NCBI RefSeq assembly: GCF_054482525.1 | Contig: NZ_CM137006.1 | Reading direction: 5' to 3' (one strand) | Length of the DNA stretch: 64,000 bases | Part shown: positions 19,138 through 58,190 of the stretch, in pieces | Layout of the letters: the number at the start of each line of letters is the position of its first letter | Numbering within the stretch: the first letter of the stretch is position 1 | Notes under the pieces: model-generated | Database searches by the model: none | Seen by the model: the letters and a program-made list of their open reading frames with translations, nothing else | Told to the model about the DNA's origin: nothing | Made by a program: the position numbers and the translations under genes

Positions 19138-19850
19138 AATAAATATCCTCCGGCATAGCCGGAGGTTTTTCAAATGCGCCTATAAGGCTCTCTTACCAGC
19201 CGCGCCCTAACAGGCGCACACGATCTGACATTTGCATCCAACTTCGTTACTTACGGCCCGTAAACGGGCTGCCCGGATAGGGAATCGATAACTGCTCTCC
19301 CATTTTATCCTCTTCAAGCTGGTGCTTTATGTAATCCTGTATCTTCGCCGTGTTCTTACCCACCGTATCGACGTAGTACCCTCTGCACCAGAACTCCCTG
19401 TTCCTGTATTTGAATTTCAAATCACCAAACTGCTCGTAAAGCATCAGACTGCTTTTCCCTTTCAGATATCCCATAAAGCCGGATACGCTCATTTTGGGCG
19501 GGATCTCCACAAGCATATGGATATGATCTGCACAGCATTCAGCTTCCAGAATCCGTACACTTTTCCACTCACACAGCTTTCTCAAAATACTGCCTATTGC
19601 TCTACGCTTCTCTCTGTAGAACACCTGTCTTCGGTATTTTGGCGCAAAAACTATGTGATATTTACAGTTCCATCGGGTGTGCGCTAAGCTCTTTTCGTTC
19701 CCCATTGGGACCCCCTTTTGATTTCTTGTTTGACACTTGCAGTTGCCAGACCGCAAGGTGTTTTAACAAATCAAAAGGGGTTTTAATAACTGGCTTAAAG
19801 CTGAAAGCTTTCCGGAACCCCCAGCCTAGCTGGGGGTTTTCTGTGCACAA
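19138..19850 (-). mobile_element. IS200-family insertion sequence (IS200/IS605 group), copy 1, 713 bp
   Basis: 713 bp repeated identically at 55973..56685 with unrelated flanks on both sides; carries a single Y1/HUH transposase gene; subterminal hairpins cctccggcatagccggagg (19147-19165) and ccccagcctagctgggg (19818-19834). Confidence 0.9.
19247..19705 (-). CDS. tnpA: IS200-type Y1 (HUH) transposase TnpA
   Basis: MGNEKSLAHTRWNCKYHIVFAPKYRRQVFY...ADHIHMLVEIPPKMSVS...; 152 aa from internal Met of supplied ORF 19247..19756; HUH motif HIHML. Confidence 0.9.
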   Translation of the reverse strand: MGNEKSLAHTRWNCKYHIVFAPKYRRQVFYREKRRAIGSILRKLCEWKSVRILEAECCADHIHMLVEIPPKMSVSGFMGYLKGKSSLMLYEQFGDLKFKYRNREFWCRGYYVDTVGKNTAKIQDYIKHQLEEDKMGEQLSIPYPGSPFTGRK

Positions 19851-41561: not shown

Positions 41562-43130
41562 TTAGCGTGCCGGCTGAGTAGTCGTGGAAGACTGCTCAAA
41601 GTGATAGCGACCGGTTTTCAGGCTGCTTGGGCCGAGGCGTGCAAACTTGAACATTAAGAACAATTCTGCCACCAGGAACAGGGTATACAGGCCGCAAATC
41701 AGCACCATTGAGAAGATGAGATCGCCTGCGGTCAGTGACGAGTTCGCCACAGCTGTCGGCAGCACTTCACCGATAGCCCACGGTTGGCGGCCATATTCAG
41801 CCACGAACCAGCCCGCTTCTACAGCAATCCACGGCAGCGGAATACCGTACAGCGCGGCGCGCAGCAGCCATTTTTTCTCGCCAATGCGGTTGCGGATGAC
41901 ACTCCAGAAAGAGAGCGCGATGATTGCCAGCAGCAGGAAGCCACACGCCACCATGATACGGAACGCGAAGTACAGCGGCGCTACACGCGGAATGGAGTCT
42001 TTGGTTGCCTGTTGAATCTGCGCTTCAGTCGCATCAGCCACGTTTGGCGTATAGCGTTTCAGCAGCAGACCGTAACCGAGGTCTTTCTTCATGCTATTGA
42101 ACTGGTCACGAACCGCCTGGTCGGTAGAACCAGAACGCAGTTGCTCGAGCAGAGAGTACGCCTTCATCCCGTTACGAATGCGTTCTTCATGCTGCACCAT
42201 CAGTTCTTTCAGGCCGATAACTGGAGTATCCACGGAACGCGTTGCAATGATGCCCAGCGCGTAAGGGATCTGGATCGCAAATTTGTTCGTCTCCTCTTCC
42301 TGATCAGGAATGCCGAACAGAGTAAAGGCAGCAGGCGCAGGTTGCGTTTCCCACTCGGCTTCAATAGCAGCCAGTTTGGTTTTCTGCACGTCGCCCATTT
42401 CGTAACCAGATTCATCACCCAGAACAATAACAGACAGAACGGCAGCCATACCGAAGCTGGCAGCGATAGCAAAGGAGCGTTTAGCGAAGGCGAAGTCACG
42501 ACCTTTCAGCATATACCATGCGCTGATACCGAGGATGAACATCGCGCCAGTCACATAACCAGACGCTACAGTGTGAACGAATTTCACCTGAGCAACCGGG
42601 TTAAGCACCAGCTCGGAGAAGCTCACCATCTCCATACGCATAGTTTCAAAGTTGAAATCGGACGCGATTGGGTTTTGCATCCAGCCGTTCGCAACCAGAA
42701 TCCACAGTGCGGACAGGTTTGAACCGAGCGCCACCAGCCAGGTGACACACATATGCTGAACTTTACCCAGACGATCCCAACCGAAGAAGAACAGACCTAC
42801 AAAGGTGGATTCGAGGAAGAAGGCCATCAGACCTTCGATTGCCAGCGGCGCACCGAAGATATCCCCTACATAGTGGGAATAGTAAGACCAGTTAGTCCCG
42901 AACTGGAACTCCATGGTCAGACCGGTTGCCACACCCAGAGCGAAGTTGATACCAAACAACTTGCCCCAGAACTTGGTCATATCTTTATAAATCTGTTTGC
43001 CGGAAAGGACGTAGACCGTTTCCATAATGGCCAGCAGGAACGCCATACCGAGCGTCAGTGGCACAAAAAGGAAGTGGTACATCGCGGTCAAGGCAAACTG
43101 TAAGCGCGACAGTTCGACTATATCTAACAT
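41562..43130 (-). CDS. cydA: Cytochrome bd-I ubiquinol oxidase subunit I
   Basis: 522 aa from [31 protein letters not shown] (second Met of supplied ORF). Confidence 0.95.
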
Positions 43131-43935
43131 CATGACTCCTTGCTCATCGCATGAAGACTCCGAGAGTGAACCCCGTTAGAAAGGGTCACACGCATGCCCC
43201 AATACAAAATTATTTGCTCGCCTCTATCGTTGCCATTTCATCAAAAGAGGAAAAGACAATGATAAAAAAGTTACAAATATGTTAATGAATAAACCAAATT
43301 GATCCCGTAATTATATTACGCCGCAAAATCCTTACAATAAACAGGTTTTTATTGAGCAAATTTGCATTTTTCGACAGTGATCAATTTATAGCGAAATTGT
43401 CACGATCTCACCAATTTGATCTACGACAATTTATCGTGTTTTGCAGATTTTTTTCAAGAATTAAAAATTGATTTATATCAAAATCAACCAAATATGTTAA
43501 TTATGTATAAACCATAGATTATTGGTAATTTTATTGTTAATTTATTGTGAAATATTTATACAACACAATTATTACAATGAAAAGGTATAGATAAAAAACC
43601 AGTGTTTTATTTAACAGAACCGCCCTATCCACTTTTTATAATACCAATTGATTAGAGTAGCCAATTTGTTGCTATTTTACATAACATATTTTTATCAAAG
43701 TTAATTGATTGTTGCCTTTATGAGCACCGACCGTAAGCCCGTTATGTTATTGTTTCATTAGTAATAATCACTTAAATGTATCGATGAAACAGGTATGACT
43801 TAGCGGGAGTGATTGTTTCTGAGTGAACAGAGACCACTTTCGCCTGATAAATGAAAAATGAGCGATTTTTGCAAGTTAGTTTTTCTATAGCCGAGTACGC
43901 TCAGCGCCTCGCTTGATTACAATGAGGTTGCTGCT
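43131..43935. promoter_or_regulatory. cydA upstream control region (long AT-rich leader/promoter region)
   Basis: ~800 bp AT-rich non-coding DNA upstream of cydA; contains a perfect FNR-type box; cydAB is known to be FNR/ArcA/H-NS controlled. Confidence 0.8.
43468..43481. promoter_or_regulatory. FNR binding site
   Basis: ttgatttatatcaa = perfect TTGAT-N4-ATCAA. Confidence 0.75.
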
Positions 43936-44880
43936 ATGAGTCCTGATAATATCAGTTCTGCTGTCAATCGCTTCTCAGGTTGGCCATCTAATAATCCTCT
44001 AAAAACAGATAACGAATCAATGACATCACCCATGACTGTGCAGGTAATAAAGATGATTGCCGCCATCCTTGACCCACATCGAATAGTCGTTGGAATCGAT
44101 ACACTTTATACAACGCAGCGCGAAACATTTACCTCAGAGAGTCAACAGCTCATTGAATCAGCATTGCAAACACTTCATGTGATGAATTTAAATAACCTGG
44201 AAACAAATCTCGATGAGGAAGGTCACTATCTGGCTTTTGGATATAACGTTGACACTCCTGACAGAATAACCGTTTCTGCTTATAATGAAAAAAAGCCTGG
44301 CTGCTATGGCCAATGTCTTTTAATACAGGATGACGAAACAGACTTATTTAACCTGATAAAAGTTAAAATTTATGAAGCCAGGCATAATTATGTCGCTCAA
44401 TTGATGAGCGATCCGGAATTTATGTTCAAATTTAGTTATAGCGCTCAACAAAATAGATTAGAACCTCATCTTCTGGTTCCCACTTATTTCCCTCTAAAAA
44501 CAAACGAACCGGTTACGCCAGAGGATGTACTGTTACTTTATCGTTTCTTTAAAATGGATGGTGATTTTAATATATTAACATCAGATGAATACATGAGTAT
44601 CATGACACCTCTGATGAAGTGTGAGCGCAGCATCCACGACCACAACAGGTATGTGACGGGCAAAGATACCCTTCTTCTGGACTATCCTCCTTCTGGTAAC
44701 CAGATATATTTCCATATTTTTCCTGACGAATCAGCAACACTAGTCCTTTATTTTTCAAACAATGACATTGAATGTTTCGTCTTTGAAAGAGATATTCCGA
44801 GCCAGTATCGCTTTTTCAAAATGTTTACCAATCTGGCACTGGTTATTGATCAGTTAACCGATGCCAATCAAATACTTTAA
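43936..44880 (+). CDS. Hypothetical protein, 314 aa, AT-rich gene, no family recognised
   Basis: Intact ORF with SD-like gagg upstream; codon usage and GC clearly lower than flanking genes; Ser/Pro/Asn/Thr-rich N-terminus without hydrophobic signal peptide. Confidence 0.7.
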   Translation: MSPDNISSAVNRFSGWPSNNPLKTDNESMTSPMTVQVIKMIAAILDPHRIVVGIDTLYTTQRETFTSESQQLIESALQTLHVMNLNNLETNLDEEGHYLAFGYNVDTPDRITVSAYNEKKPGCYGQCLLIQDDETDLFNLIKVKIYEARHNYVAQLMSDPEFMFKFSYSAQQNRLEPHLLVPTYFPLKTNEPVTPEDVLLLYRFFKMDGDFNILTSDEYMSIMTPLMKCERSIHDHNRYVTGKDTLLLDYPPSGNQIYFHIFPDESATLVLYFSNNDIECFVFERDIPSQYRFFKMFTNLALVIDQLTDANQIL

Positions 44881-44960
44881 TTTTTATATATCCCCTGTGG
44901 CAAATATTGCTAAACAATGCCCGGGGATTAATTTTTATTACTCACGGAAAGATTTAAATA

Positions 44961-45383
44961 ATGATCCCATCTCAAATCTCTTTCAACACCCTTCCTGTCA
45001 ATGCAACATACGCTTCAGAGACAACAGTTGACACACAAAAATTCTCTGACATCCTCTACTCAGCGGGGTGTTCCCTAAAGGATCTGGCTTATCTGAGCAG
45101 ATGTCTGGCATCAATACATCCGACTATCGCCAAAAACATTTATGAAACAGAAAATCTCAGCGATCAAAAATTACTGCATATTGATTTCCGTAGTACAAAT
45201 GAAATCAAGATAAATATCTTTTTTGGTCAACAACGAGAAGGATTAATTGAAATTAATTCTGACACTGTCATTTTTCCGATATTGTCTTCATTAATTGACT
45301 CCGCCATTTCTAAATTTCAACACCAAATCCCCGTTAACGGTTCAGTAAATCCTGACCTATTGTATGAGGATTATACTGATTAA
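44961..45383 (+). CDS. Hypothetical protein, 140 aa, apparently acidic, AT-rich gene
   Basis: ORF 80 bp downstream of the 314-aa gene, same strand, same low-GC composition. Confidence 0.6.
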   Translation: MIPSQISFNTLPVNATYASETTVDTQKFSDILYSAGCSLKDLAYLSRCLASIHPTIAKNIYETENLSDQKLLHIDFRSTNEIKINIFFGQQREGLIEINSDTVIFPILSSLIDSAISKFQHQIPVNGSVNPDLLYEDYTD

Positions 45384-45930
45384 ATCCCTCCTGTCGCGAA
45401 AAATGGCCTGCGTTATTGCCAGACGTAATAAAACTTTTGATTAACGTTACTCGTACTGGTAGCACCTTCATGTACTTTTCTTTTTTACGAAAAATCAAAA
45501 GAGCTAACAAAGGTCATAATTCGCATGAATCATTAATTATTTGTTATTTTCAACATTATTTTTACATTAAGCAGAGATGAATTGCAGTGAAATTCGACTT
45601 AACTTTTATGAAATGCATTTACTCATAGCTAAAGCCACGTCACAAAAATGCAAATTAGAAGTTGATCACAATTATCTCAATACATCAAATCAAGTTAATT
45701 TTAAAAATTTAACATTCATGACATTAGTTGACATAACACACTGAATTAAAATGAGAATTTGAAAACACACTTTAAACAATCATTTCCCGAAAGACATTTT
45801 GAAAATAGATCAATTGCAACATTACGGTCAGATAAAGACACTCCTGTGATATTAAACCTGTGCCGTTATGAGCGGCCATAAATACGACGTGTGTAACTTA
45901 TTTTACTCTCTGTCTTACAAAGGATTACCC

Positions 45931-46380
45931 ATGAAGAAAGCAACACTTGTGATTGGCGTTATTGGCGCGGACTGCCATGCAGTAGGCAATAAAGTTCTGG
46001 ACCGCGTTTTTAGCAACCATGACTTCAGAGTTATTAATCTGGGCGTAATGGTCAGCCAGGACGAATATATTGATGCTGCCATTGAAACTGGTGCTGACGC
46101 GATTGTCGTCTCCTCTATCTATGGGCATGGCGATATCGATTGTCTGGGCATGCGCGAACGCTGCATCGAGCGTGGGCTGGGTAACATCCTGCTCTATGTG
46201 GGCGGTAACCTGGTGGTCGGAAAACATGACTTCGCTGACGTGGAAACCAAGTTCAAAGAGATGGGATTTGATCGCGTCTTTTCCCCAAGTCATGACTTAG
46301 AAGATGTTTGTCAGCTGATGGCCCACGATATCAACCAACGTCATGACGTTGATACTCGCATTCTTGAAGAGGCAATCTGA
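45931..46380 (+). CDS. Glutamate mutase S (sigma) component, B12-binding subunit of methylaspartate mutase
   Basis: ORF 45868..46380; start [21 protein letters not shown] at 45931 with SD aagga; DxHxxG cobalamin-binding motif (DCHAVG); ~149 aa, similar to clostridial GlmS/MutS. Confidence 0.88.
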
Positions 46381-47768
46381 TGCAAATCGTCTCTGTCGAT
46401 ATTGGATCGACGTGGACCAAAGCAGCCCTCTTCACCCGGGAGGGGGACGCGTTAACGTTGGTTAACCACGTTCTGACCCCAACCACCACCCATCATCTGG
46501 CGAAGGGGTTTTTCTCCAGCCTGGACCAGGTGTTAAACGTAGATAATGCCCTCCCCCTGTTAAACAGTGGTGAGGTTGCATTGAAGTATTCCTCCTCTGC
46601 CAAAGGTGGGCTGGCGGTTGCCGCAATGGGATTGGTGCCTTCTATCACCCTGGAAACCGCGAAAGTAACCGCTCACTCTGCGGGTGCTAAAATTGCGCAA
46701 TATTACGCCTACAAGCTGAACCGCCGTGATATCCAGGCACTGGAAGAAACGCAGCCCGATATTCTCTTGTTCACCGGCGGCACCGATGGCGGAGAAGAAA
46801 GCTACGGACTGAATAACGCCCGTGTGTTGGCAGAATCCAAACTCGACTGCGCCATTATTTATGCCGGAAACCGGGATATTCAGGACGAGGTGCAGGAGAT
46901 CCTCGGGCATAAAGACCTGACCATCGTCGACAACGTTCTGCCCGATCTTGACCATCCGAACCCTTTAGCTGCACGCCAGGCTATCTGCGACATATTCCTT
47001 AAACGCATCGTTAAAGGGAAAGGGTTGGATGTCATTGTTGATAAAACAGGCGAAGAACCAATGCCGACACCATGGACGGTCTTTGAACTGGTTAAGGCAA
47101 TCAGTAACGTCGATCACAGCTGGAAAGAGTTCATGCTGATCGACATGGGTGGCGCAACCACCGATGTCTATTCCGCCTGTGCCAACACGCTCTCGCCCGA
47201 CACCGTTTTACACGGCGTACCGGAACCCTTCGTGAAACGGACGGTGGAAGGCGATCTGGGAATGCGCGTCTCGGCAATGGTGGTTGGTGAAAGTGCGAAA
47301 GAGTTAGTCAATGTGAATTTTGCTCAGCAACCCGCACAGCTGGACGCTTTTTATCATTACCTCCGCCATCTAGTCGCTCATCCCGACTACTTACCCGCGA
47401 ATGCAGAAGAAAAATATTTCGATACCGTCCTGGCCGGACTGTGTGTGGGTTATGCCACCGAAAGACATGCGGGCACCAAAAAAGAGGTCTGCACCTGCGT
47501 CGGCAATGTCGATTTACAGATGGGACGTGACCTGACAACCGTGCGTAAAGTCGTTGGTTCCGGCGGATGGCTCTCGCGTGCCAGTCAGTTCGATATGCAT
47601 CACTGGTTGAAATACCGCGAGTTAAACGACGACGGTAAACGCATTCTCTTACCGACCGAATTTGAATATTACCGCGATTCCCGGGGGCTATTACCACTGC
47701 TGGCAAACGTCGCCAGAGTCGATCCACTGGCCGCCGCGCGCACCAGTATTCAATGCTTAACCCTATAA
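46380..47768 (+). CDS. Glutamate mutase L component (GlmL/MutL-like, ASKHA-fold putative reactivase/chaperone)
   Basis: 462 aa [18 protein letters not shown] (ASKHA phosphate-1-like motif); start overlaps S-subunit stop (ATGA); located between S and E genes as in Clostridium. Confidence 0.8.
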   Translation: MQIVSVDIGSTWTKAALFTREGDALTLVNHVLTPTTTHHLAKGFFSSLDQVLNVDNALPLLNSGEVALKYSSSAKGGLAVAAMGLVPSITLETAKVTAHSAGAKIAQYYAYKLNRRDIQALEETQPDILLFTGGTDGGEESYGLNNARVLAESKLDCAIIYAGNRDIQDEVQEILGHKDLTIVDNVLPDLDHPNPLAARQAICDIFLKRIVKGKGLDVIVDKTGEEPMPTPWTVFELVKAISNVDHSWKEFMLIDMGGATTDVYSACANTLSPDTVLHGVPEPFVKRTVEGDLGMRVSAMVVGESAKELVNVNFAQQPAQLDAFYHYLRHLVAHPDYLPANAEEKYFDTVLAGLCVGYATERHAGTKKEVCTCVGNVDLQMGRDLTTVRKVVGSGGWLSRASQFDMHHWLKYRELNDDGKRILLPTEFEYYRDSRGLLPLLANVARVDPLAAARTSIQCLTL

Positions 47769-47786
47769 CAATTAAGGCTGCAATCA

Positions 47787-49232
47787 ATGGAACTTCGAAA
47801 TAAGAAATTAACCCATGACGAATTCATGACCGAGCGGCAACAGGTACTGAAAACCTGGGAAACCGGCAAGGATGTTGAAAACTTTGAAGATGGCGTTAAA
47901 TACCAACAAACCATTCCGGAGCATAAACGCTTCTCTCTTGCCCTGCTGAAAGCAGACAAGGAAGGTAAAACTCTTAGCCAACCGCGCGCAGGCGTGGCGC
48001 TGATGGACGAACACATCGAACTACTGAAAACACTACAAGAAGAGTGCGATCTGCTGCCGAGCACCATCGATGCATATACCCGTCTGAATCGGTACGAAGA
48101 AGCGGCTGTAGGGATTAAAAAATCCATCGAAGCCGGAACCTCTAAACTGAACGGTTTACCGGTCGTTAACCATGGCGTCGCAGCTTGCCGTCGCCTCACC
48201 GAAACTCTGCAAAAACCGCTACAGATCCGCCACGGCACGCCAGATGCGCGTCTGCTGGCTGAAATCTCGATGGCCAGCGGCTTTACCAGTTATGAAGGCG
48301 GCGGCATTTCCTACAATATTCCGTATGCCAAGCGCGTAACGCTGGAAAAATCGATCCGCGACTGGCAGTACTGCGACCGTTTAATGGGGATGTATGAAGA
48401 ACACGGGATCCGCATCAACCGCGAACCGTTTGGCCCACTAACGGGTACGCTGATCCCGCCGTTTATCTCGCACTCTATCGCGATAATCGAAGGATTACTG
48501 GCGCTGGAACAGGGTGTGAAATCTATCACCGTTGGTTATGGACAGGTCGGCAGCCTTACGCAGGATGTCGCGGCGATCCAGTCTCTGCGTGAACTTGCAC
48601 ACGAATACTTTCAGAGCTATGGCTATACCGACTATGAATTAAGTACCGTATTTCACCAGTGGATGGGCGGCTTTCCGGAAGACGAATCGAAAGCGTTCGC
48701 CATTATCTCCTGGGGTGCAGCCGTCGCGGGGATGTCTGGTGCCACCAAAGTCATCACCAAAAGTCCGCACGAAGCCTGGGGCATCCCGACTGCCACTGCC
48801 AACATTCAGGGGCTGAAAGCCTCCCGCCAGATGCTCAACATGGTCAATGAGCAGAAATTCCCGCCGTGCCCTGCGGTTGAACTGGAAATTGAACTGATTA
48901 AGAGCGAGGTTCGCGCGGTACTCAATAAAGTGTTCGAATTGGGTAATGGTGATATTGCGCGCGGTACGGTGCTGGCATTTGAAGCGGGCGTACTGGATGT
49001 GCCGTTTGCACCAGCCGCGTGTAACGCGGGCAAAATTCTTCCTGTCCGTGATAACACCGGCGCGATACGCGTACTGGAAGCCGGAGCCGTTCCATTGCCA
49101 AAAGATATTCTCGACCTCCACCACGATTACGTTGCTGAACGCGCACGCTTTGAAGGACGCCAACCGACATTCCAGATGGTTGTAGATGACATCAATGCTG
49201 TATCCCACAGTAAATTAATAGGAAGACCATAA
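47787..49232 (+). CDS. Glutamate mutase E (epsilon) catalytic subunit, methylaspartate mutase
   Basis: 481 aa MELRNKKLTHDEFMTERQQVLKTWETGKDVE...; strong resemblance to remembered Clostridium cochlearium GlmE (MELKNKKWTDEEF...QPRAGVALLDEHI...HGTPDSRLLAEI...GGGISYNIPYAK). Confidence 0.9.
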   Translation: MELRNKKLTHDEFMTERQQVLKTWETGKDVENFEDGVKYQQTIPEHKRFSLALLKADKEGKTLSQPRAGVALMDEHIELLKTLQEECDLLPSTIDAYTRLNRYEEAAVGIKKSIEAGTSKLNGLPVVNHGVAACRRLTETLQKPLQIRHGTPDARLLAEISMASGFTSYEGGGISYNIPYAKRVTLEKSIRDWQYCDRLMGMYEEHGIRINREPFGPLTGTLIPPFISHSIAIIEGLLALEQGVKSITVGYGQVGSLTQDVAAIQSLRELAHEYFQSYGYTDYELSTVFHQWMGGFPEDESKAFAIISWGAAVAGMSGATKVITKSPHEAWGIPTATANIQGLKASRQMLNMVNEQKFPPCPAVELEIELIKSEVRAVLNKVFELGNGDIARGTVLAFEAGVLDVPFAPAACNAGKILPVRDNTGAIRVLEAGAVPLPKDILDLHHDYVAERARFEGRQPTFQMVVDDINAVSHSKLIGRP

Positions 49233-50473
49233 TGAAAATAAAACAGGCCCTGTTCACCGCTGGCTATTCCTCATTCTATTTCGATGACCAGCAGGCGATA
49301 AAAAACGGAGCGGGTCACGACGGCTTTTTTTATACCGGGGAGCCAGTAACACAGGGGTTTAACGCCGTACGTCAGGCCGGGGAGTGCGTATCGGTACAGT
49401 TGATTCTGGAAAACGGCGCGGTCGCCGTAGGTGACTGTGCTGCCGTACAGTATTCCGGGGCAGGTGGTCGCGATCCACTGTTCCTCGCGGAGCACTTTAT
49501 TCCGTTCCTCAACGACCATATCAAGCCATTACTGGTAGGCCGCGATGTGGATGCTTTCCTGCCGAATGCCCGTTTCTTCGACAAATTGCGTATTGACGGC
49601 AACTTGCTGCATACCGCCGTGCGCTACGGATTATCACAGGCGCTGCTTGATGCTACCGCGCTGGCAACCGGCCGTCTGAAAACTGAAGTGGTCTGTGATG
49701 AATGGCAGTTGCCACGCGTGGCGGAATCCATTCCATTATTTGGTCAGAGCGGCGACGATCGATATATCGCCGTCGATAAGATGATCCTTAAGGGCATCGA
49801 CGTGCTGCCCCATGCGCTGATTAATAACGTCGAAGAGAAACTGGGCTTTAAAGGTGAAAAACTGCGCGAATATGTCCGCTGGCTGTCGGATCGTATTCTG
49901 AGCAAGCGCACCAGCGCACGCTACCACCCTACCCTGCACATCGATGTATACGGCACTATCGGTCTGATCTTCGATATGGATCCGCTTCGCTGTGCGCAAT
50001 ACATCGCCAGCCTGGAAAAAGAAGCGCAAGGCCTGCCGCTCTACATTGAAGGGCCGGTCGATGCCGGTAACAAGCCCGATCAAATTCGCCTGCTGACCGC
50101 GATTACCAAAGAGCTGACGCGCCTCGGTTCCGGCGTGAAAATTGTGGCCGATGAATGGTGTAACACCTACCAGGATATTGTTGATTTCACCGATGCCGCC
50201 AGTTGCCACATGGTGCAAATCAAAACCCCGGATCTGGGCAGTATTCACAACATCGTCGATGCAGTTCTTTATTGCAACAGCCACAGCATGGAAGCGTACC
50301 AGGGCGGCACCTGCAATGAAACTGATGTCAGTGCCCGCACCTGTGTCCACGTCGCCCTTGCCGCTCGCCCCATACGTATGCTGGTAAAGCCAGGGATGGG
50401 CTTTGACGAAGGCCTCGATATCGTCTTCAACGAAATGAATCGTACTATCGCGCTGTTGCAGGCTAAGGATTAA
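49232..50473 (+). CDS. 3-methylaspartate ammonia-lyase (beta-methylaspartase)
   Basis: 413 aa MKIKQALFTAGYSSFYFDDQQAIKNGAGHDGFFYTGEP...CAAVQYSGAGGRDPLF...; enolase-superfamily MAL, close to remembered clostridial MAL; start overlaps glmE stop. Confidence 0.92.
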   Translation: MKIKQALFTAGYSSFYFDDQQAIKNGAGHDGFFYTGEPVTQGFNAVRQAGECVSVQLILENGAVAVGDCAAVQYSGAGGRDPLFLAEHFIPFLNDHIKPLLVGRDVDAFLPNARFFDKLRIDGNLLHTAVRYGLSQALLDATALATGRLKTEVVCDEWQLPRVAESIPLFGQSGDDRYIAVDKMILKGIDVLPHALINNVEEKLGFKGEKLREYVRWLSDRILSKRTSARYHPTLHIDVYGTIGLIFDMDPLRCAQYIASLEKEAQGLPLYIEGPVDAGNKPDQIRLLTAITKELTRLGSGVKIVADEWCNTYQDIVDFTDAASCHMVQIKTPDLGSIHNIVDAVLYCNSHSMEAYQGGTCNETDVSARTCVHVALAARPIRMLVKPGMGFDEGLDIVFNEMNRTIALLQAKD

Positions 50474-50476
50474 CAA

Positions 50477-51847
50477 ATGGCTCGTTCTTTTAAAGTCTTA
50501 TCGCCAACGGCAATCCTCGGGTATGGATTCCCGGAGGAGAGCTTCCGCAAAGCGATGGCAGAATCGCCCGATCTGATCGCCGTTGATGCTGGCTCTTCCG
50601 ATCCGGGTCCCCACTACCTCGGGGCGGGCAAACCGTTTACCGATCGCGCAGGGGTCAAGCGCGATCTACGCTATATGATCACCGCAGGCGTGCAAAATAA
50701 TATACCGGTGGTGATCGGAACGGCCGGCGGTTCTGGTGCCGCTCCACACCTGGAGTGGTGCCGAGAAATAATTCATGAGATTGCCCGGGAAGAGCACCTC
50801 TCGTTCTCGATGGCGCTGATCCCGGCAGACGTTGACAAAGCCATCGTCCACCAGGCGCTGGATAACGGCAAAATCACGGCGCTGGATTTTGTCCCGCCGT
50901 TAACCCACGACGCGATTGACGAAAGTACGTATATCGTCGCGCAAATGGGCATCGAACCCTTCCAGCAGGCGCTGAAAGAAGGCGCGCAAGTGGTGCTGGG
51001 CGGGCGCGCTTACGACCCGGCCTGCTTTGCTGCGCTACCGATCATGCAAGGCTTTGATGAAGGTCTGGCGCTGCATTGTGGGAAAATCCTTGAATGCGCG
51101 GCAATCGCCGCAACGCCCGGCTCAGGCTCTGACTGTGCGATGGGCATCATTGATGACAACGGCTTTACGCTGAAGACATTTAATCCGAAGCGTAAATTTA
51201 CCGAAACGTCAGCGGCTGCACACACACTGTATGAGAAATCCGATCCCTACTTCCTGCCAGGACCTGGCGGCGTGTTGAACCTGAAAGGCTGCACATTTAA
51301 AGCGGTCAATGACGGCGAAGTGTACGTCAGCGGTTCTAAGCATGAAGAAACGCCGTATGCCCTGAAACTGGAAGGTGCGCGACGGGTGGGCTTCCGCTGT
51401 CTGACCATCGCAGGAACGCGCGACCCGATCATGATCGCCGGGATCGATAAAATCATCGATGAAGTCAAAACCAGCGTTTCGCGTAACCTGTCGCTCGACG
51501 ATGACAGCATACGCATCAATTTCCACCTGTACGGCAAAAACGGGGTGATGGGCGACCATGAACCGATGCAAACTGCCGGGCATGAGCTGGGGATTGTCCT
51601 TGATGTAGTTGCACCGACCCAGGAAATTGCCAACAGCGTTTGCTCGCTGGTGCGCTCTACTATGCTGCACTACGGCTATGAAAACCGCATCGCTACCGCA
51701 GGCAACCTGGCGTTCCCATTCTCCCCTTCAGATATCCAGGGCGGGCCGGTATACGAATTTTCCATATATCACCTGATTGAAGCCAACGACGCTCTGCGTT
51801 TTGATTTCCATATTGAACAGGTGACGCCAGAAGGAGTTCAGGCATGA
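50477..51847 (+). CDS. Conserved protein of unknown function (possibly DUF1446 / AtuA-like family; assignment from memory, unverified)
   Basis: 456 aa ORF starting 4 nt after MAL stop; no recognisable catalytic motif. Confidence 0.75.
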   Translation: MARSFKVLSPTAILGYGFPEESFRKAMAESPDLIAVDAGSSDPGPHYLGAGKPFTDRAGVKRDLRYMITAGVQNNIPVVIGTAGGSGAAPHLEWCREIIHEIAREEHLSFSMALIPADVDKAIVHQALDNGKITALDFVPPLTHDAIDESTYIVAQMGIEPFQQALKEGAQVVLGGRAYDPACFAALPIMQGFDEGLALHCGKILECAAIAATPGSGSDCAMGIIDDNGFTLKTFNPKRKFTETSAAAHTLYEKSDPYFLPGPGGVLNLKGCTFKAVNDGEVYVSGSKHEETPYALKLEGARRVGFRCLTIAGTRDPIMIAGIDKIIDEVKTSVSRNLSLDDDSIRINFHLYGKNGVMGDHEPMQTAGHELGIVLDVVAPTQEIANSVCSLVRSTMLHYGYENRIATAGNLAFPFSPSDIQGGPVYEFSIYHLIEANDALRFDFHIEQVTPEGVQA

Positions 51848-52161
51848 AACAGTCAATTGTCTCACTGGCGCAAGTCATTCGTTCGAAAAATGCCGGACCT
51901 TACGAACTGGTTTTAGATATTTTATTTAAAACCAAAGAAAACTATGAGCGAGTTAAATCATCAGGGCAATTAACCCCAGAACTGATCGCGCGCTTATATC
52001 ATGTTGAACCTGACTTTATTCATCGTATTGTCTGGTTTGATCCTTCTAACGCAGTAAAAATCGTCATGCCACGAGATATTATCTCCGGGAATGTAGGTGA
52101 CAATGATGTCTATGGTGCACAGCAACATGCACCTTTATTAAATATGAGTTTCGATTTGTAA
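51844..52161 (+). CDS. Small conserved protein of unknown function (possibly DUF4387), partner of preceding gene
   Basis: 105 aa ORF whose ATG overlaps the stop of the preceding gene (ATGA), implying translational coupling. Confidence 0.7.
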   Translation: MKQSIVSLAQVIRSKNAGPYELVLDILFKTKENYERVKSSGQLTPELIARLYHVEPDFIHRIVWFDPSNAVKIVMPRDIISGNVGDNDVYGAQQHAPLLNMSFDL

Positions 52162-52321
52162 AAATCCGAACACTTTTAGCCAACTGACATCCCGTCACTT
52201 ATTGCAGTTCAACACTTCAGCTATTTGTAAGGTTGTAATAGCAGGTAGATGCCTGAATCTTTATTCGGGCATCTACTTCTCCTGATTCTGATTTATCGCC
52301 GTGCACCTGATGGAGGAAAAA

Positions 52322-53602
52322 ATGAAGAAAATAAGTTTAACCACGATGATTCTTTTGGCGCTGGTACTTGGAATGATTATCGGCGTAGTGCTCAATAACA
52401 CTGCTTCACCGGAAACAGCAAAACTCTATGCGCAAGAAATATCGATATTCACGACGATTTTCTTACGACTGATAAAAATGATTATCGCTCCGTTAGTGGT
52501 CTCTACCCTGGTGGTAGGTATAGCTAAAATGGGCGATGCCAAAGCCCTTGGTCGTATTTTTTCTAAAACACTCTTTTTATTTATTTGCGCCTCATTGCTG
52601 TCAATTGCCTTAGGCTTGATAACAGTAAATTTCTTCATGCCAGGCACAGGAATTAATTTTGTTGCACACGGTGCCGAAACCACCGGAGTGGTCGCGTCAG
52701 AACCCTTTACGCTAAAAGTATTTATTTCGCATGCTTTCCCCACCAGCATTGTCGATGCCATGGCGCACAATGAAATTTTGCAAATCGTGGTGTTCTCAAT
52801 TTTCCTCGGCTGTAGCCTGACGGCGATTGGTGAGAAAGGCAGCGCCATCGTTCACGCCTTAGATTCGCTGGCACATGCCATGTTAAAGCTCACTGGCTAC
52901 GTCATGCTCTTCGCTCCCCTGACCGTATTCGCTGCTATTTCAGCATTGATTGCTGAACGAGGACTGGCAGTTATGGTGAGCGCCGGGATCTTTATGGGTG
53001 AATTTTATTTCACCATGTTGTTACTTTGGGTGCTGCTTATCGGTCTGGCCATCGTTTATGTCGGCCCCTGCATCAGACGCCTGACCCGCGCCCTTTCGGA
53101 ACCCGCCCTGCTGGCATTTACCACATCCAGTTCTGAAGCGGCTTTTCCGGGAACGCTTGAAAAACTGGAGCAATTTGGCGTTTCCCCCAAAATTGCCAGC
53201 TTTGTCTTACCCATTGGCTACTCATTTAATCTCGTTGGATCAATGGCCTACTGCTCCTTCGCCACAGTTTTCATCGCCCAGGCCTGCAATATCCATTTAT
53301 CCATCGGTGAGCAAATCACCATGCTGTTGATCCTGATGTTGACCTCGAAAGGAATGGCTGGCGTACCACGCGCCTCAATGGTGGTTATCGCCGCCACGCT
53401 CAACCAGTTCAATATTCCGGAAGCGGGGCTGATCTTGCTGATGGGCGTTGATCCGTTCCTTGATATGGGGCGTTCAGCGACAAACGTCATGAGCAACGCA
53501 ATGGGCGCTGCGATGGTGAGTCGGTGGGAAGGCGAACATTTCGGCGAGGGCTGTCGGGGTAAAGCATTAAAACCCAATGAATCGAACGTTGCTCTGCCCT
53601 GA
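52322..53602 (+). CDS. Dicarboxylate/amino acid:cation symporter (GltP/DctA family)
   Basis: ORF 52301..53602; start MKKISLTTMILLALVLGMIIGVV at 52322 after SD ggagg; multi-pass hydrophobic protein resembling glutamate/aspartate or C4-dicarboxylate symporters. Confidence 0.85.
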   Translation: MKKISLTTMILLALVLGMIIGVVLNNTASPETAKLYAQEISIFTTIFLRLIKMIIAPLVVSTLVVGIAKMGDAKALGRIFSKTLFLFICASLLSIALGLITVNFFMPGTGINFVAHGAETTGVVASEPFTLKVFISHAFPTSIVDAMAHNEILQIVVFSIFLGCSLTAIGEKGSAIVHALDSLAHAMLKLTGYVMLFAPLTVFAAISALIAERGLAVMVSAGIFMGEFYFTMLLLWVLLIGLAIVYVGPCIRRLTRALSEPALLAFTTSSSEAAFPGTLEKLEQFGVSPKIASFVLPIGYSFNLVGSMAYCSFATVFIAQACNIHLSIGEQITMLLILMLTSKGMAGVPRASMVVIAATLNQFNIPEAGLILLMGVDPFLDMGRSATNVMSNAMGAAMVSRWEGEHFGEGCRGKALKPNESNVALP

Positions 53603-53709
53603 GGGGGATCTTAAGCAATCAGAAGCCAATGACTACGCATTTTTATAAGCCGGATCATGAAGTTAGACGGCAATTAAGTAACACTAACGTTTAAGGTGAA
53701 AAGTGAAAT

Positions 53710-55362
53710 ATGTCCAAACCATTTATCTGGCAAGAACCGTTTCTACAAAATAAAGACGGTACAGAATATACATTAATTAGCGATCAACATATTACAGTAA
53801 CGGAATTAGACGGCGAAGAAGTGATAAAAATCGCTCCTGAAGCATTAACGCTGCTTGCCCGGCAGGCATTTTATGAAGCCTCTTTTTTCTTACGTTCCGC
53901 TCATTTGCAACAGGTCGCCAGCATTTTTAACGATCCGCAGGCCAGCAGTAATGATAAATACGTTGCGTTGCAGTTATTACGTAATGCTGAAGTCTCAGCA
54001 AAAGGGGTATTACCCAACTGTCAGGATACCGGCACCGCAACTATTGTTGCCAGTAAAGGGCAACAGATATGGACCGGAGGTAACGACGCTGAAGCCTTAA
54101 GCAAAGGCATTTACACCACTTTCCAGGAAAATAATCTGCGCTTTTCACAAAATGCGCCGCTGGATATGTACACCGAAGTCAATACGCAAACCAATCTCCC
54201 GGCGCAGATTGATATCAGCGCTGTCGCTGGTGATGAGTACCATTTTCTCTGTGTTAATAAAGGGGGCGGCTCTGCCAATAAAGCCGCGCTTTATCAGGAA
54301 ACCAAATCCTTATTGCAACCAGAAAAACTGACCGCATTTTTAATCGAAAAAATGAAATCGCTGGGCACCGCTGCCTGCCCGCCTTACCACATCGCCTTTG
54401 TCGTCGGAGGGCTTTCAGCCGATCAAACCTTAAAAGTTGCCAAGCTGGCCTCTACGAAATATTACGACAATTTGCCCACCAGCGGAAACGAGCAGGGACA
54501 AGCATTCCGTGATATTGAGCTGGAAAAAGTGTTGCTCGAGGCCAGTCAGCAATTTGGTATTGGTGCGCAATTTGGGGGTAAATATTTCGCTCATGATATT
54601 CGCGTCATTCGTCTGCCGCGTCACGGTGGCTCTTGCCCGATAGCTATGGCGCTCTCCTGTTCTGCGGATCGCAATATCAAAGCAAAAATTAACAAGCACG
54701 GTATCTGGCTGGAAAAACTCGAACACAATCCTGGGCAATATATTCCAGCCTCACTACGGGAAGAAAATCACGCGCAACATGTACAACTGGATCTAAACCG
54801 TCCGTTGCGTGAAGTGATGCAGGATCTCGCCAGATTACCGGTAGGTACCCGCGTGTCGTTAAGTGGTCCCATCGTAGTGGCGCGCGATATCGCCCACGCC
54901 AAAATAAAAGTGCGGCTGGATAGCGGCGAACCGATGCCGGATTACCTGAAGCATCATATTGTCTATTACGCTGGCCCGGCGAAAACACCGGAGAACATGG
55001 CCTGCGGTTCACTGGGTCCAACCACGGGCGGTCGAATGGACGGTTATGTCGATACCTTCCAGGCTGCTGGCGGCAGTCTGGTAATGTTATCGAAAGGTAA
55101 CCGCAGCCAGCAGGTCACCGATGCCTGTCACAAACATGGCGGCTTCAATCTGGGAAGTATTGGCGGTGCAGCTGCGTTACTGGCGCAAGAATATGTCAAA
55201 AGTCTGCGTTGCCTGGAATACCCGGAGCTGGGTATGGAAGCGGTGTGGATGATGGAAGTGGAAAATTTACCCGCATTCATCCTGGTAGATGATAAAGGCA
55301 ATAATTTCTTTAGTCAGTTTGAGCAGCAACACCGCTGTGCCAGTTGCCCTGCGGGACATTAA
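53710..55362 (+). CDS. fumD: Class I (Fe-S) fumarate hydratase-like enzyme; likely mesaconase/fumarase FumD type
   Basis: 550 aa, collinear similarity to E. coli FumA/FumB ([74 protein letters not shown]); clustered with glutamate mutase and MAL. Confidence 0.85.
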
Positions 55363-55371
55363 GGAAAATGA

Positions 55372-55974
55372 ATGGAAGCGCGAATTTCAACTGAACGGCA
55401 TGTGCAGCACCAGCAAAAATTGAAGGAACAGGTCGATACGCGCGTCGCGGCGGCGATAGAGAAAAAAGGGATCTTGATTGTTTTCACCGGCAACGGCAAA
55501 GGGAAATCCACTGCCGCGTTTGGTACTGTGACGCGCGCGGTGGGTCATGGCAAAACGGTGGGGGTTGCGCAGTACATCAAGGGGCAATGGGACAACGGCG
55601 AATACAACCTTCTCCAGCCGCTGGGGGTTGAGTTTCATATTATGGGAACCGGTTTTACCTGGGAGACACAGAACCGGCAAGCGGATATCGACGCGGCGAA
55701 AGAGGTCTGGTCGGAAAGCAAACGGATGCTGGCTGACAAGCGTTACGACTTAGTGGTGCTTGATGAGCTGACCTATATGCTGGCTTACCATTATCTGGAC
55801 ACCGAAGAAGTGATCGCTTCTCTGCAAAACCGCCCGGCACAACAAAGTGTCATTGTCACCGGACGCGGTTGCCACAGTCAGATATTAAAAATGGCGGATA
55901 CGGTCAGCGAAATCCGCCCCGTCAAACATGCTTTTGATAACGGCATTCAGGCGCAGCCGGGTATCGACTGGTAA
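55372..55974 (+). CDS. Cob(I)alamin adenosyltransferase (CobA/BtuR family), cluster-associated
   Basis: 200 aa; P-loop VFTGNGKGKSTAAFG and ...WETQNRQADIDAA...DLVVLDELTYM...TGRGCH...VSEIRPVKHAF matching remembered E. coli BtuR. Confidence 0.88.
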   Translation: MEARISTERHVQHQQKLKEQVDTRVAAAIEKKGILIVFTGNGKGKSTAAFGTVTRAVGHGKTVGVAQYIKGQWDNGEYNLLQPLGVEFHIMGTGFTWETQNRQADIDAAKEVWSESKRMLADKRYDLVVLDELTYMLAYHYLDTEEVIASLQNRPAQQSVIVTGRGCHSQILKMADTVSEIRPVKHAFDNGIQAQPGIDW

Positions 55975-56685
55975 TAAATATCCTCCGGCATAGCCGGAGG
56001 TTTTTCAAATGCGCCTATAAGGCTCTCTTACCAGCCGCGCCCTAACAGGCGCACACGATCTGACATTTGCATCCAACTTCGTTACTTACGGCCCGTAAAC
56101 GGGCTGCCCGGATAGGGAATCGATAACTGCTCTCCCATTTTATCCTCTTCAAGCTGGTGCTTTATGTAATCCTGTATCTTCGCCGTGTTCTTACCCACCG
56201 TATCGACGTAGTACCCTCTGCACCAGAACTCCCTGTTCCTGTATTTGAATTTCAAATCACCAAACTGCTCGTAAAGCATCAGACTGCTTTTCCCTTTCAG
56301 ATATCCCATAAAGCCGGATACGCTCATTTTGGGCGGGATCTCCACAAGCATATGGATATGATCTGCACAGCATTCAGCTTCCAGAATCCGTACACTTTTC
56401 CACTCACACAGCTTTCTCAAAATACTGCCTATTGCTCTACGCTTCTCTCTGTAGAACACCTGTCTTCGGTATTTTGGCGCAAAAACTATGTGATATTTAC
56501 AGTTCCATCGGGTGTGCGCTAAGCTCTTTTCGTTCCCCATTGGGACCCCCTTTTGATTTCTTGTTTGACACTTGCAGTTGCCAGACCGCAAGGTGTTTTA
56601 ACAAATCAAAAGGGGTTTTAATAACTGGCTTAAAGCTGAAAGCTTTCCGGAACCCCCAGCCTAGCTGGGGGTTTTCTGTGCACAA
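55973..56685 (-). mobile_element. IS200-family insertion sequence, copy 2, 713 bp
   Basis: Identical by eye to 19138..19850 including transposase gene and both subterminal hairpins; begins within/at the TAA stop of the adenosyltransferase gene. Confidence 0.9.
56082..56540 (-). CDS. tnpA: IS200-type Y1 (HUH) transposase TnpA
   Basis: Protein identical to that of copy 1 (supplied ORFs 19247..19756 and 56082..56591 are identical). Confidence 0.9.
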   Translation of the reverse strand: MGNEKSLAHTRWNCKYHIVFAPKYRRQVFYREKRRAIGSILRKLCEWKSVRILEAECCADHIHMLVEIPPKMSVSGFMGYLKGKSSLMLYEQFGDLKFKYRNREFWCRGYYVDTVGKNTAKIQDYIKHQLEEDKMGEQLSIPYPGSPFTGRK

Positions 56686-56718: not shown

Positions 56719-57624
56719 TTACATCTCCTGCGGTACAACCGATTTCGCCAGCAACCATTCACGAAATTGCTGCAAGTGCGGTGAGTCAGACTTCTCTTCC
56801 TGCCACGTCATAATAAAACGATTACCGGTACGAATAGGCACATCACAGGGAATCACCATATCGCCACTATCCAAATCATGTTGAATAGCGAACCGTGGTA
56901 ACAGCGCCACGCCGAGATTAGAGCGCACGGCGGCAATCAGCATTGAAAGCAAATCGAAACGTGGTCCGTTGTTGACCAGCGGACTGCTAACGCCAGATAA
57001 GGCAAACCACTCTTCCCAGCCAGTAATACGGGTACTTTGATGCAGAAGTGGTAACTCTGTAAGCAGTTCTGCCACTGACAGTTTTTGATCGGACATTGCA
57101 AGCAAACTGCCGCTGCATACCGGCAAAATCTCCTCTTCAAAGAGATATTCTACTTCCGCCCAGGGCGCGCAAAAATTTTCGCGCATAATGACAGCATCGT
57201 ACTCCCGATTAAGAAAATCGCCGTTATTAGCTAAAGAGTGAATATTAACAATAATATCGGGATGTAACTTTGTGAATTCATGTAAATTTGGGATTAACCA
57301 GTGGGTACTAAACGTAGGATTCACGGCAAGTTCAATAACCTTAACTGTAGGTTGCCAGGTCATAATGGTATTGGTATCGCGTTCCAGCTTATTTAATGTT
57401 TCTTTTACTATCCCCAGGTAATACTTCCCTGCATCATTAAGAAAAATACGTTTTTTAGAGTGTGAAAATAACGGAGTATGTAAAAATTCCTCCAGCGCAC
57501 TCACTTGTCTGAATACTGCACTTTGGGTTAACGCTAACTCCTCTGCCGCTCTGGTATAACTTTCATGACGTGCGACGACCTCAAAAGTCACCAGCAGTTC
57601 CGTTTTAGGTATTTTTCCTCGCAT
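56719..57624 (-). CDS. LysR-type transcriptional regulator
   Basis: 301 aa; N-terminal HTH ...FEVVARHESYTRAAEELALTQSAVFRQVSALEEFL, C-terminal periplasmic-binding-protein-like effector domain. Confidence 0.85.
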   Translation of the reverse strand: MRGKIPKTELLVTFEVVARHESYTRAAEELALTQSAVFRQVSALEEFLHTPLFSHSKKRIFLNDAGKYYLGIVKETLNKLERDTNTIMTWQPTVKVIELAVNPTFSTHWLIPNLHEFTKLHPDIIVNIHSLANNGDFLNREYDAVIMRENFCAPWAEVEYLFEEEILPVCSGSLLAMSDQKLSVAELLTELPLLHQSTRITGWEEWFALSGVSSPLVNNGPRFDLLSMLIAAVRSNLGVALLPRFAIQHDLDSGDMVIPCDVPIRTGNRFIMTWQEEKSDSPHLQQFREWLLAKSVVPQEM

Positions 57625-58190
57625 AATGCCGTCCCTTAAAAATAGTTTAAACCATCAAAAATACATTACTTATTACGAAGTAATGGTAACCAAAGCAGCA
57701 ATAAATAATTTATAAGAATCATGATTGACATTTATAACCCAGTAAGCCTGGCGTGACAAATATCTTAATCAGATAATAATAATCCGAAAAGCACAGCGCC
57801 TTTCGAATTATCCGGAATCACATTAAGTGAAAATTATTAAATTGATATCATTTATCATATCTGTGGATATTATGATAAACAATCAACAAAGATTTTATTT
57901 TTGATTTATAGCATATCCCTCTAAGAATTTTTGCGATGCTGCAATATCCGGGGTAAAGACCCGATCCTGGCTGACAAATGGCACGACTTGACGATAAGCG
58001 GTGAACATCGCTTTTGTTGATTTACTTAACGCTACGGTCAAACGCTGGGAAGCCAGTGCATCAGGTAACGATTCGAAATTCGCCGTCGTTCTTATTCGTG
58101 GCTTGCGGTCGGTTGCGGCAATCCACAGTGGCTGTGGTCATGCAGTCAAGCCAGCGGTCAGATTTCGACCGTGGTTAACATTTAAGGCAT

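Follow-up and report, generated by a model that had tools for sequence, protein, structure and literature searches.

Putative operator of a cluster-encoded LysR-type regulator in the AT-rich DNA preceding the glutamate mutase operon of Escherichia coli

The cydA-sucD interval of the Escherichia coli chromosome is the site of a gene cluster for the glutamate mutase/methylaspartate pathway, of which glmS is the first gene. The DNA preceding glmS was analyzed within a window of 64,000 nucleotides (64 kb; contig NZ_CM137006.1 of RefSeq assembly GCF_054482525.1), to which all positions refer unless another locus is named. The spacer in question comprises 547 bp, from the stop codon of an open reading frame (ORF) of 140 amino acids (aa) at 45383 to the glmS start codon at 45931. 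The system is made up as follows:

45384-45930, no strand assigned: intergenic region between the 140-aa ORFan gene and glmS; 547 bp, 32% GC, unannotated in 1135 genomes.
45931-55974, plus strand: target genes glmS-glmL-glmE-mal-AtuA family-DUF4387-symporter-fumD-cobO, named after the RefSeq annotation of identical or near-identical strains.
56719-57624, minus strand: gene of a LysR-type regulator of 301 aa, assigned to the GcvA/DsdC/AmpR subfamily with NCBIfam and proposed to bind the dyad described below.

The glmS gene itself extends from 45931 to 46380, the symporter is of the dicarboxylate/amino acid type, and fumD encodes a class I fumarase. Of 5426 complete E. coli genomes, 1135 (21%) contained the region, and in all of these the annotation of the spacer was 'none'. 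Positions 43100-46400 were 100% identical to E. coli PCN033. Carriers of the pathway cluster include O157:H7, O145 and strain 042, about a fifth of E. coli and many opportunistic enterobacteria. A study of the cluster found no condition under which it is expressed (Kronen et al. 2015, PMC4682846). It was also the only paper retrieved in searches on the Sakai/EDL933 locus tags and on the regulation of the cluster, and no paper describing a cis element or the regulation of the cluster was found in this way. The initial annotation had pointed to an AT-rich gap of about 550 bp before the operon, and this description proved accurate, with a GC content of 0.320 as compared to 0.507 for the whole window. 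Equally AT-rich windows of 547 nt accounted for 1.1% of all such windows in the 64 kb. Comparable AT-rich stretches in the window were only the upstream region of cydA and the 5' end of the LysR regulator gene with its upstream region (57362-57940, GC content of at most 34%).

First, the conservation of the spacer was determined. In a comparison of divergent E. coli lineages, the 160 bp or so nearest to the start codon were nearly invariant, while the remainder diverged and contained insertions and deletions. The proximal 160 bp showed at least 95% identity in 1135 of 1135 genomes, with a minimum of about 98.6% among the matches listed, as compared to the adjacent distal 231 bp, which fell below 95% in 232 of these genomes, with a minimum of 88.5%. 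Second, the regions upstream of glmS were compared across genera, using 53 GTDB genomes of Enterobacterales. BLAST detected one short shared island only, at query positions of about 392-435, and an anchored ungapped comparison of 36 distinct sequences resolved this island as the 27-bp block AAGAYATTYTGAAAATAGATCAATTGC (45791-45817). Its 18-bp core TGAAAATAGATCAATTGC was identical in more than 30 species of Enterobacteriaceae, from the genera Escherichia, Citrobacter, Klebsiella, Salmonella, Enterobacter, Lelliottia, Pluralibacter, Buttiauxella and Pseudescherichia. The block started 108-136 nt from the glmS ATG, the one exception being Citrobacter amalonaticus (locus L017) with extra downstream sequence. 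For 13 genus-level representatives, the mean pairwise identity was 0.92 in the block, 0.45-0.47 in its flanks and 0.88 in the first 150 nt of glmS. Degenerate forms of the block that retained ATCAATTG were present in Yersinia, Budvicia, Hafnia, Morganella and Yokenella.

The block occurred once in the 64-kb window, and exact matches to the 18-mer were found at 80 loci in a search of metagenome contigs. At 30 of them, glmS followed on the same strand 119-135 nt downstream, and a 31st had a partial, degraded glmS match. Six further loci were truncated copies of the glmS promoter, and the enterobacterial-type loci numbered 36 in all. Since all 36 were glmS promoters, the element is specific to the glmS promoter within enterobacterial DNA. 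The other 44 loci were rejected as a wider regulon and classed as chance matches, since their flanks were unrelated and they lay mostly inside long ORFs of unrelated organisms.

The initial annotation had placed the control region of the operon within the spacer, and a conserved module is indeed present, but it is confined to the proximal ~140 bp. The idea of a long leader as one transcribed unit did not hold, since the control module lies 75-140 nt before the ATG and the distal ~390 bp evolve fast. On the best reading, the proximal ~140 bp would be the functional part, and the upstream ~390 bp would be AT-rich filler, either non-functional or merely silencing. The following elements were distinguished in and next to the proximal part:

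45735-45754, plus strand: weakly conserved block resembling AACACAnTGAWWTAAA, about 55 nt upstream of the dyad, with a minority of its columns at 65-80% in the 36 sequences.
45791-45817, plus strand: invariant operator-like block of 27 bp, AAGACATTTTGAAAATAGATCAATTGC, defined by its cross-genus conservation and containing GATC.
45838-45844, plus strand: conserved ACACTCC at fixed spacing from the dyad; identity of 0.67 in this second core as compared to 0.45 in the spacer sequence.
45850-45855, plus strand: conserved TATTAA, a candidate weak -10 hexamer that lacks the -7 T, kept in position and sequence across genera.
45860-45877, plus strand: short GC-rich stem-loop with the core GCCGTT-ATG-AGCGGC, present in the minimum-energy and centroid structures of RNAfold.
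45920-45933, plus strand: Shine-Dalgarno sequence AAGGA, 6-nt spacer and glmS ATG, as read from the sequence.

The block contains the dyad TTGA-N7-TCAA (TTGAAAATAGATCAA, 45799-45813, centre at 45806), which has the T-N11-A form typical of LysR boxes and was invariant across the Enterobacteriaceae examined. The form YTG-N9-CAA was retained in Hafnia and in two Yersinia sites, one at glmS and one at fumD. A variable pyrimidine-rich 20-mer, (A/C)ACTCC and TATTAA followed the block in this order at fixed spacing. With TATTAA as the -10 hexamer, transcription would start at about 45860-45863 and yield a leader of about 70 nt; the dyad would then be centred at about -56, with ACACTCC at about -25 to -18, where it is possibly the activation-site part of the regulator footprint. 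In LysR-type promoters, recognition sites are centred at about -55 to -80 and activation sites lie near -35. Two other assignments, TTAACA as -35 and the downstream AAATATTAG as -10, were rejected because neither their spacing nor their sequence was conserved across genera. No sigma-70 consensus promoter (at least 9/12 matches, with -11A and -7T) was found on the plus strand of 45384-45930, as expected for an activator-dependent promoter. At the position of the stem-loop, hairpins of unrelated sequence and with weak z-scores were predicted in most of the 17 lineages folded; the hairpin was missing or negligible in C. amalonaticus (locus L010) and in Enterobacter/Lelliottia. The ribosome-binding sequence was kept before glmS in all orthologues as AGAGGAT or AAAGGAT.

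The region was scanned with consensus sequences for FNR, CRP, ArcA, IHF, H-NS, NarL, Fur, Lrp, sigma-54 and a GcvA-type box, and only weak, non-conserved matches were obtained. An FNR site is usually centred at -41.5. The earlier observation that the spacer contains no perfect FNR box was borne out, as the best match to TTGAT-N4-ATCAA (45662-45675) reached 8/10, lay some 270 nt before the ATG and was altered in O157. It may be argued that the block is nevertheless the site of a chromosomal regulator other than that of the cluster, such as a CRP/FNR-type protein, IHF, Fis or a two-component response regulator. The arms TTGA...TCAA resemble half-sites of the FNR/CRP family, ATCAA being a perfect FNR half-site, and an invariance this extreme points to a host factor that is highly conserved. 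In addition, the LysR gene of E. coli is distant and convergent. Kato and Asano reportedly linked the production of methylaspartate ammonia-lyase in enterobacteria to oxygen-limited growth. However, the dyad was rejected as an FNR box since its arms are separated by one base too many (N7 instead of N6). Furthermore, the FNR match of no more than 8/10 and a CRP match with at least two mismatches both lay about 270 nt from the ATG and were polymorphic, and the scans for IHF, sigma-54, ArcA, Lrp and Fur were empty at the block. A global factor would also be expected to have other targets, but the exact 18-mer was present at no other enterobacterial promoter in the metagenome scan and nowhere else in the window, although a search for exact matches is a weak test. 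Therefore, binding of the block by such a regulator is considered unlikely.

The LysR-type regulator encoded with the cluster was characterized as the predicted binder of the dyad. It matched the NCBIfam GcvA subfamily with an E-value of 1.2e-65 and 221.6 bits, below the cutoff of 288 bits, and is therefore not GcvA itself; its closest solved structure was that of GcvA (PDB 8y6u). In E. coli, the gene is located at the far end of the cluster in convergent orientation, and it was intact in an O157:H7 genome. A GcvA-like LysR regulator accompanied the glm cluster in every lineage checked, with orthologues in E. coli, Shigella dysenteriae, non-enterica Salmonella subspecies, Citrobacter, Enterobacter, Klebsiella michiganensis, Trabulsiella, Yersinia and Yokenella, all of them taxa with the glm cluster. 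The position of the gene was the same in Enterobacter, i.e., convergent after cobO. In Yokenella, it was divergent from a btu-like transporter operon running into glmS, and in Yersinia, from SUMT-pduX-glmS. In Aromatoleum and Rhodoferax, a regulator homologue with 42-45% identity was directly divergent from glmS. The predicted recognition helix LTQSAVFRQ was nearly invariant in the orthologues; in Yokenella it reads LTQGALFRQ, with two residues changed, and the left half-site also differs there.

Further copies of the motif were located next to other genes of the pathway. In Yokenella (locus L087, positions 4973 and 9839), a variant of the motif occurred twice, as TCAAGTTGTCTTCAAATTTTATCAATTGC before glmS and as a second copy, 27/30 identical, in the intergenic DNA that separates the regulator gene from the divergent btu-like operon (fecCD). 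In Yersinia (loci L044, L047 and L049-L051, positions of about 195-330), a second related site, TTGCAGATAGAACAATTGC, was found about 170 nt upstream of a fumD-like gene. The second copies in Yokenella and Yersinia thus constitute regulon-type evidence for a LysR operator. In the regulator-glmS spacer of Aromatoleum (locus L079, 3504-3513), GATAAATTGC lay 124 nt before glmS and was 9/10 identical to the E. coli half-site GATCAATTGC, which sits 123 nt before glmS; the estimated chance of such a 9/10 match in this spacer was about 0.01. Inside the cluster, no second motif copy was detected in the 64-kb window or in the Enterobacter cluster that was also checked, which fits transcription of glmS to cobO mainly from one promoter.

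Several observations were made on the surroundings of these genes. In the strain analyzed here, an IS200C element (tnpA and STnc490, the latter at 56550-56673 by Rfam) occupies about 56082-56673 between cobO and the regulator gene, a gap of only 33 bp in strains 042 and O157 86-24. A second STnc490 match was present in the window at 19715-19838. The AtuA-family and DUF4387 genes (50477-52161) lay between mal and the symporter gene in all enterobacterial clusters seen, and a DUF1446 protein encoded downstream of mal was flagged as of unknown function by Kronen et al. (PMC4682846). Where glmS did not adjoin cydA (loci L016, L018, L022, L025, L034, L041 and L044-L056), its upstream neighbours were mostly cobalamin-related, namely SUMT, a PduX-like GHMP kinase, a class I/II aminotransferase, a sirohaem synthase-like protein and BtuB/BtuF-like transport proteins; genes of the pathway and of its cofactor supply are thus found at the same place. 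Citrobacter sedlakii (locus L016) departed from this pattern, with a GntR/UTRA regulator gene as the neighbour of glmS.

Taken together, the region probably contains the promoter and operator of the glutamate mutase/methylaspartate operon, with the LysR regulator of the cluster as the predicted binder (estimated probability of about 0.6), and the assignment of this regulator to the dyad is likewise probable. The initial annotation had considered the regulatory logic unknown; this has been narrowed, since the invariant T-N11-A dyad and the cluster-encoded LysR regulator, neither of which that annotation mentions, together point to pathway-specific activation. An activator-dependent promoter, silent by default, would be in keeping with both the lack of a consensus promoter and the reported lack of expression conditions (PMC4682846). 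We infer that the GcvA-like regulator would bind to the dyad, some 56 bp ahead of the predicted transcription start, as its recognition site and would contact the ACACTCC region as its activation site. With a pathway-related inducer bound, it would recruit RNA polymerase, for which the promoter offers no usable -35 hexamer. The resulting mRNA would carry a leader of about 70 nt, with the small hairpin at its 5' end and AAGGA-N6-ATG at its 3' end, and the AT-rich DNA further upstream may add silencing of the H-NS type.

Several points weigh against this interpretation. In E. coli, the regulator gene lies at a distance of 10 kb in convergent orientation, whereas the textbook arrangement is divergent. 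No motif copy was found near its own promoter in the 64-kb window, so there is no evidence of autoregulation in E. coli. The absolute invariance over 18 bp is stricter than in a typical LysR site, and another or a second protein may bind. Since TATTAA lacks the -7 T, the start site and the position of the dyad at -56 are uncertain. In Yersinia, the motif lies about 11 bp closer to the -10-like sequence (about one helical turn, as read from the alignment) and 205-227 nt from the ATG. A position weight matrix scan of one orthologue context (locus L180) gave no site. Finally, the block does not resemble the CTAAT-N9-ATTAG pattern of GcvA sites that was used for the scan.

The invariance and the embedded GATC also allow a more far-reaching proposal, in which an uncharacterised regulator of the GcvA type, with the block as its operator, is the master switch for B12-dependent glutamate fermentation in enterobacterial pathogens and opportunists. 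Both the invariance and the GATC would then derive from two overlapping readers, and the pathway would be gated epigenetically or by host signals. Dam methylation at the embedded GATC or a nucleoid protein could act as the second reader besides the regulator. OxyR at agn43 and Lrp at pap are Dam-dependent switches, and the presence of GATC inside a proposed LysR-type site, invariant in all Enterobacteriaceae examined, is a speculative likeness to them. Unlike these systems, the glm site contains one GATC, the Yersinia variant contains none, and there is no evidence of phase variation. This proposal is regarded as doubtful.

Base composition could suggest a simpler explanation than a LysR operator, i.e., that, as the initial annotation had suggested, H-NS coats the region as xenogeneic AT-rich DNA, and an ordinary promoter operates without a dedicated operator. 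The DNA is AT-rich and horizontally acquired, as judged from its GC content of 32% as compared to 51% and its presence as a variable island in 21% of E. coli, and the block matches the high-affinity H-NS motif TCGATAAATT at 8/10. In addition, the operon was not inducible in the laboratory (PMC4682846), and silencing by H-NS fits both the base composition and this reported failure to find inducing conditions. However, composition cannot explain an 18-mer that is identical in more than nine genera while its flanks drift to 45% identity, since H-NS sites are degenerate, nor does it account for the additional motif copies beside pathway genes in Yokenella and Yersinia. As a full account of the region, H-NS coating is therefore improbable, even more so than a different chromosomal regulator, but silencing by H-NS can coexist with the LysR operator model rather than replacing it.

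The presence of a structured RNA or a hidden gene in the spacer was also analyzed. Enzymes dependent on B12 and B12 genes are often controlled by riboswitches, and a long structured leader (a B12 or glutamate riboswitch or an attenuator) might fill the region. No intrinsic terminator was predicted on 45384-45930, thus read-through transcripts from the upstream gene into glmS may exist. However, a scan of 43000-46500 for the cobalamin riboswitch (RF00174 and related families) or any other Rfam family gave only noise at E-values of up to 10, and 15 orthologous loci gave zero Rfam matches at the gathering score. As a positive control, tRNAs, RtT, STnc490 and the CpoB thermometer were detected in the rest of the window. 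The earlier statement that the spacer has no cobalamin-riboswitch-like B12 box was borne out. Relative to shuffled sequences, the predicted leader folded with a z-score of +0.38 and the whole spacer with one of -0.04, and the conserved block was invariant rather than covarying.

A small gene in place of a leader would be the other way to fill the spacer, and one ORF had in fact been annotated as such:

45577-45744, plus strand: ORF of 55 aa, formerly the EDL933 gene Z0896, judged spurious.

The sequence of this ORF is identical to the deposited 'hypothetical protein Z0896', which persists in many GenBank records and was removed from the current RefSeq; the skipped RefSeq locus tags at the spacer are due to this removal. 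Z0896 was rejected as a gene because its frame is broken in two lineages (frameshifted or truncated in strain MFDS1019527 and in Escherichia sp. MOD1-EC7003) and because it has no Pfam match. Altogether, the spacer contains six small ORFs of 31-58 aa, which were compared across six Escherichia lineages and had no Pfam match. Each ORF outside the invariant proximal part was disrupted in at least one lineage; the sole intact one (45772-45879, minus strand) sits within the invariant proximal part, where its intactness is uninformative. Accordingly, the view that the spacer lacks coding potential was upheld, and the conserved small ORF that would have spoken against the initial annotation was looked for, with none kept intact outside the invariant proximal part. 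Both the structured leader and the small gene are already largely refuted and appear highly improbable.

The predicted LysR operator was compared to known systems. In the GcvA, DsdC and AmpR systems, which control gcvTHP, dsdXA and ampC, a recognition site is combined with an activation site, and the layout at glm matches this arrangement. The glm regulator is nearest to GcvA by profile and solved structure, and the T-N11-A dyad lies upstream of a promoter without a good -35 hexamer, with a second element nearer to the -10 hexamer. Unlike GcvA, the glm regulator stays at 221.6 as compared to 288 bits, and its site is TTGA-N7-TCAA with CAATTGC and without the CTAAT pattern. The regulator gene of E. 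coli also differs from these systems in its location, being convergent instead of divergent and 10 kb distant. TtdR, which controls ttdABT for anaerobic L-tartrate utilization in E. coli, is a LysR regulator dedicated to an oxygen-sensitive dicarboxylate fermentation, as is proposed for the glm regulator, and its pathway includes a class I fumarase-like dehydratase and a transporter, as does the glm cluster. TtdR belongs to a different LysR subfamily, and the substrate is a different one. The eut and pdu operons are B12-dependent catabolic operons controlled by substrate-sensing protein activators (EutR and PocR) and not by an operon cobalamin riboswitch. They are horizontally variable islands like glm, but their regulators are of the AraC family, unlike the LysR regulator of glm. 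Their likeness to glm carries no indication of B12 sensing at the glm operon. The clostridial clusters for glutamate fermentation (glmS-mutL-glmE-mal-mesAB-cit) share the same core enzymes with the enterobacterial cluster. To our knowledge, no cis element has been described for either. In the legends to Fig 4 and Fig 5 of Kronen et al. (PMC4682846), a putative regulator of the GntR family is listed for the clostridial clusters and one of the LysR family for the enterobacterial clusters; thus, the regulator family differs, and unlike the clostridial clusters, the enterobacterial cluster lacks citramalate lyase genes.

The distal part of the spacer has a separate history, to which two features upstream of glmS belong:

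43777-45525, plus strand: AT-rich E. coli-specific insertion into the ancestral cydA-glmS spacer, bounded by blastn breakpoints 43776 and 45525.
43936-44880 (314 aa) and 44961-45383 (140 aa), adjacent: two ORFan genes within the insertion, with a GC content of 37-38%.

The cydA-glmS spacers of Escherichia whittamii (1380 bp) and Escherichia sp. E1V33 (1373 bp) are gene-free, and blastn detected homology to the window only at 43134-43776 on the cydA side and at about 45525-45930 on the glmS side. Since this homology stops at 43776 and 45525, positions 43777-45525 represent an insertion in the E. coli lineage, and the first 140 bp or so of the 547-bp spacer are its 3' flank. The two ORFan genes were absent from E. 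whittamii, Escherichia sp. E1V33, Klebsiella, Citrobacter and Salmonella arizonae and reduced to fragments in Escherichia sp. MOD1-EC7003 (locus L030). Their products had no match in Pfam, NCBIfam, PADLOC or PHROGs, and the genes appear to be a later insertion outside the pathway. In Klebsiella, Citrobacter and S. arizonae, the cydA-glmS spacer is about 1.2 kb long and contains no genes. Thus, a long AT-rich spacer is ancestral at the cydA-glmS locus. The spacer had been called unusually long, and its 547 bp stand, but this length is not a peculiarity of the strain, since relatives without the ORFan genes have cydA-glmS spacers of 1.2-1.4 kb. On the other side of the insertion, the upstream regulatory region of cydA (43134-43776) was 80-90% identical to most E. 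coli genomes without the island, and this divergence suggests recombination at the island boundary.

With the module of about 140 bp, an exact candidate operator (TTGA-N7-TCAA in AAGAYATTYTGAAAATAGATCAATTGC) and a named candidate regulator gene are available for the glutamate mutase/methylaspartate operon. The annotation of the locus is corrected in that Z0896 is no gene, no riboswitch is present and the two ORFan genes are placed outside the pathway. A LysR-activated catabolic operon belongs to an ordinary mechanism class, so the value of the finding is practical rather than conceptual. If the master-switch proposal were true, the long-standing puzzle of the conditions under which E. coli O157:H7 and related bacteria express the cluster would become directly testable (PMC4682846).

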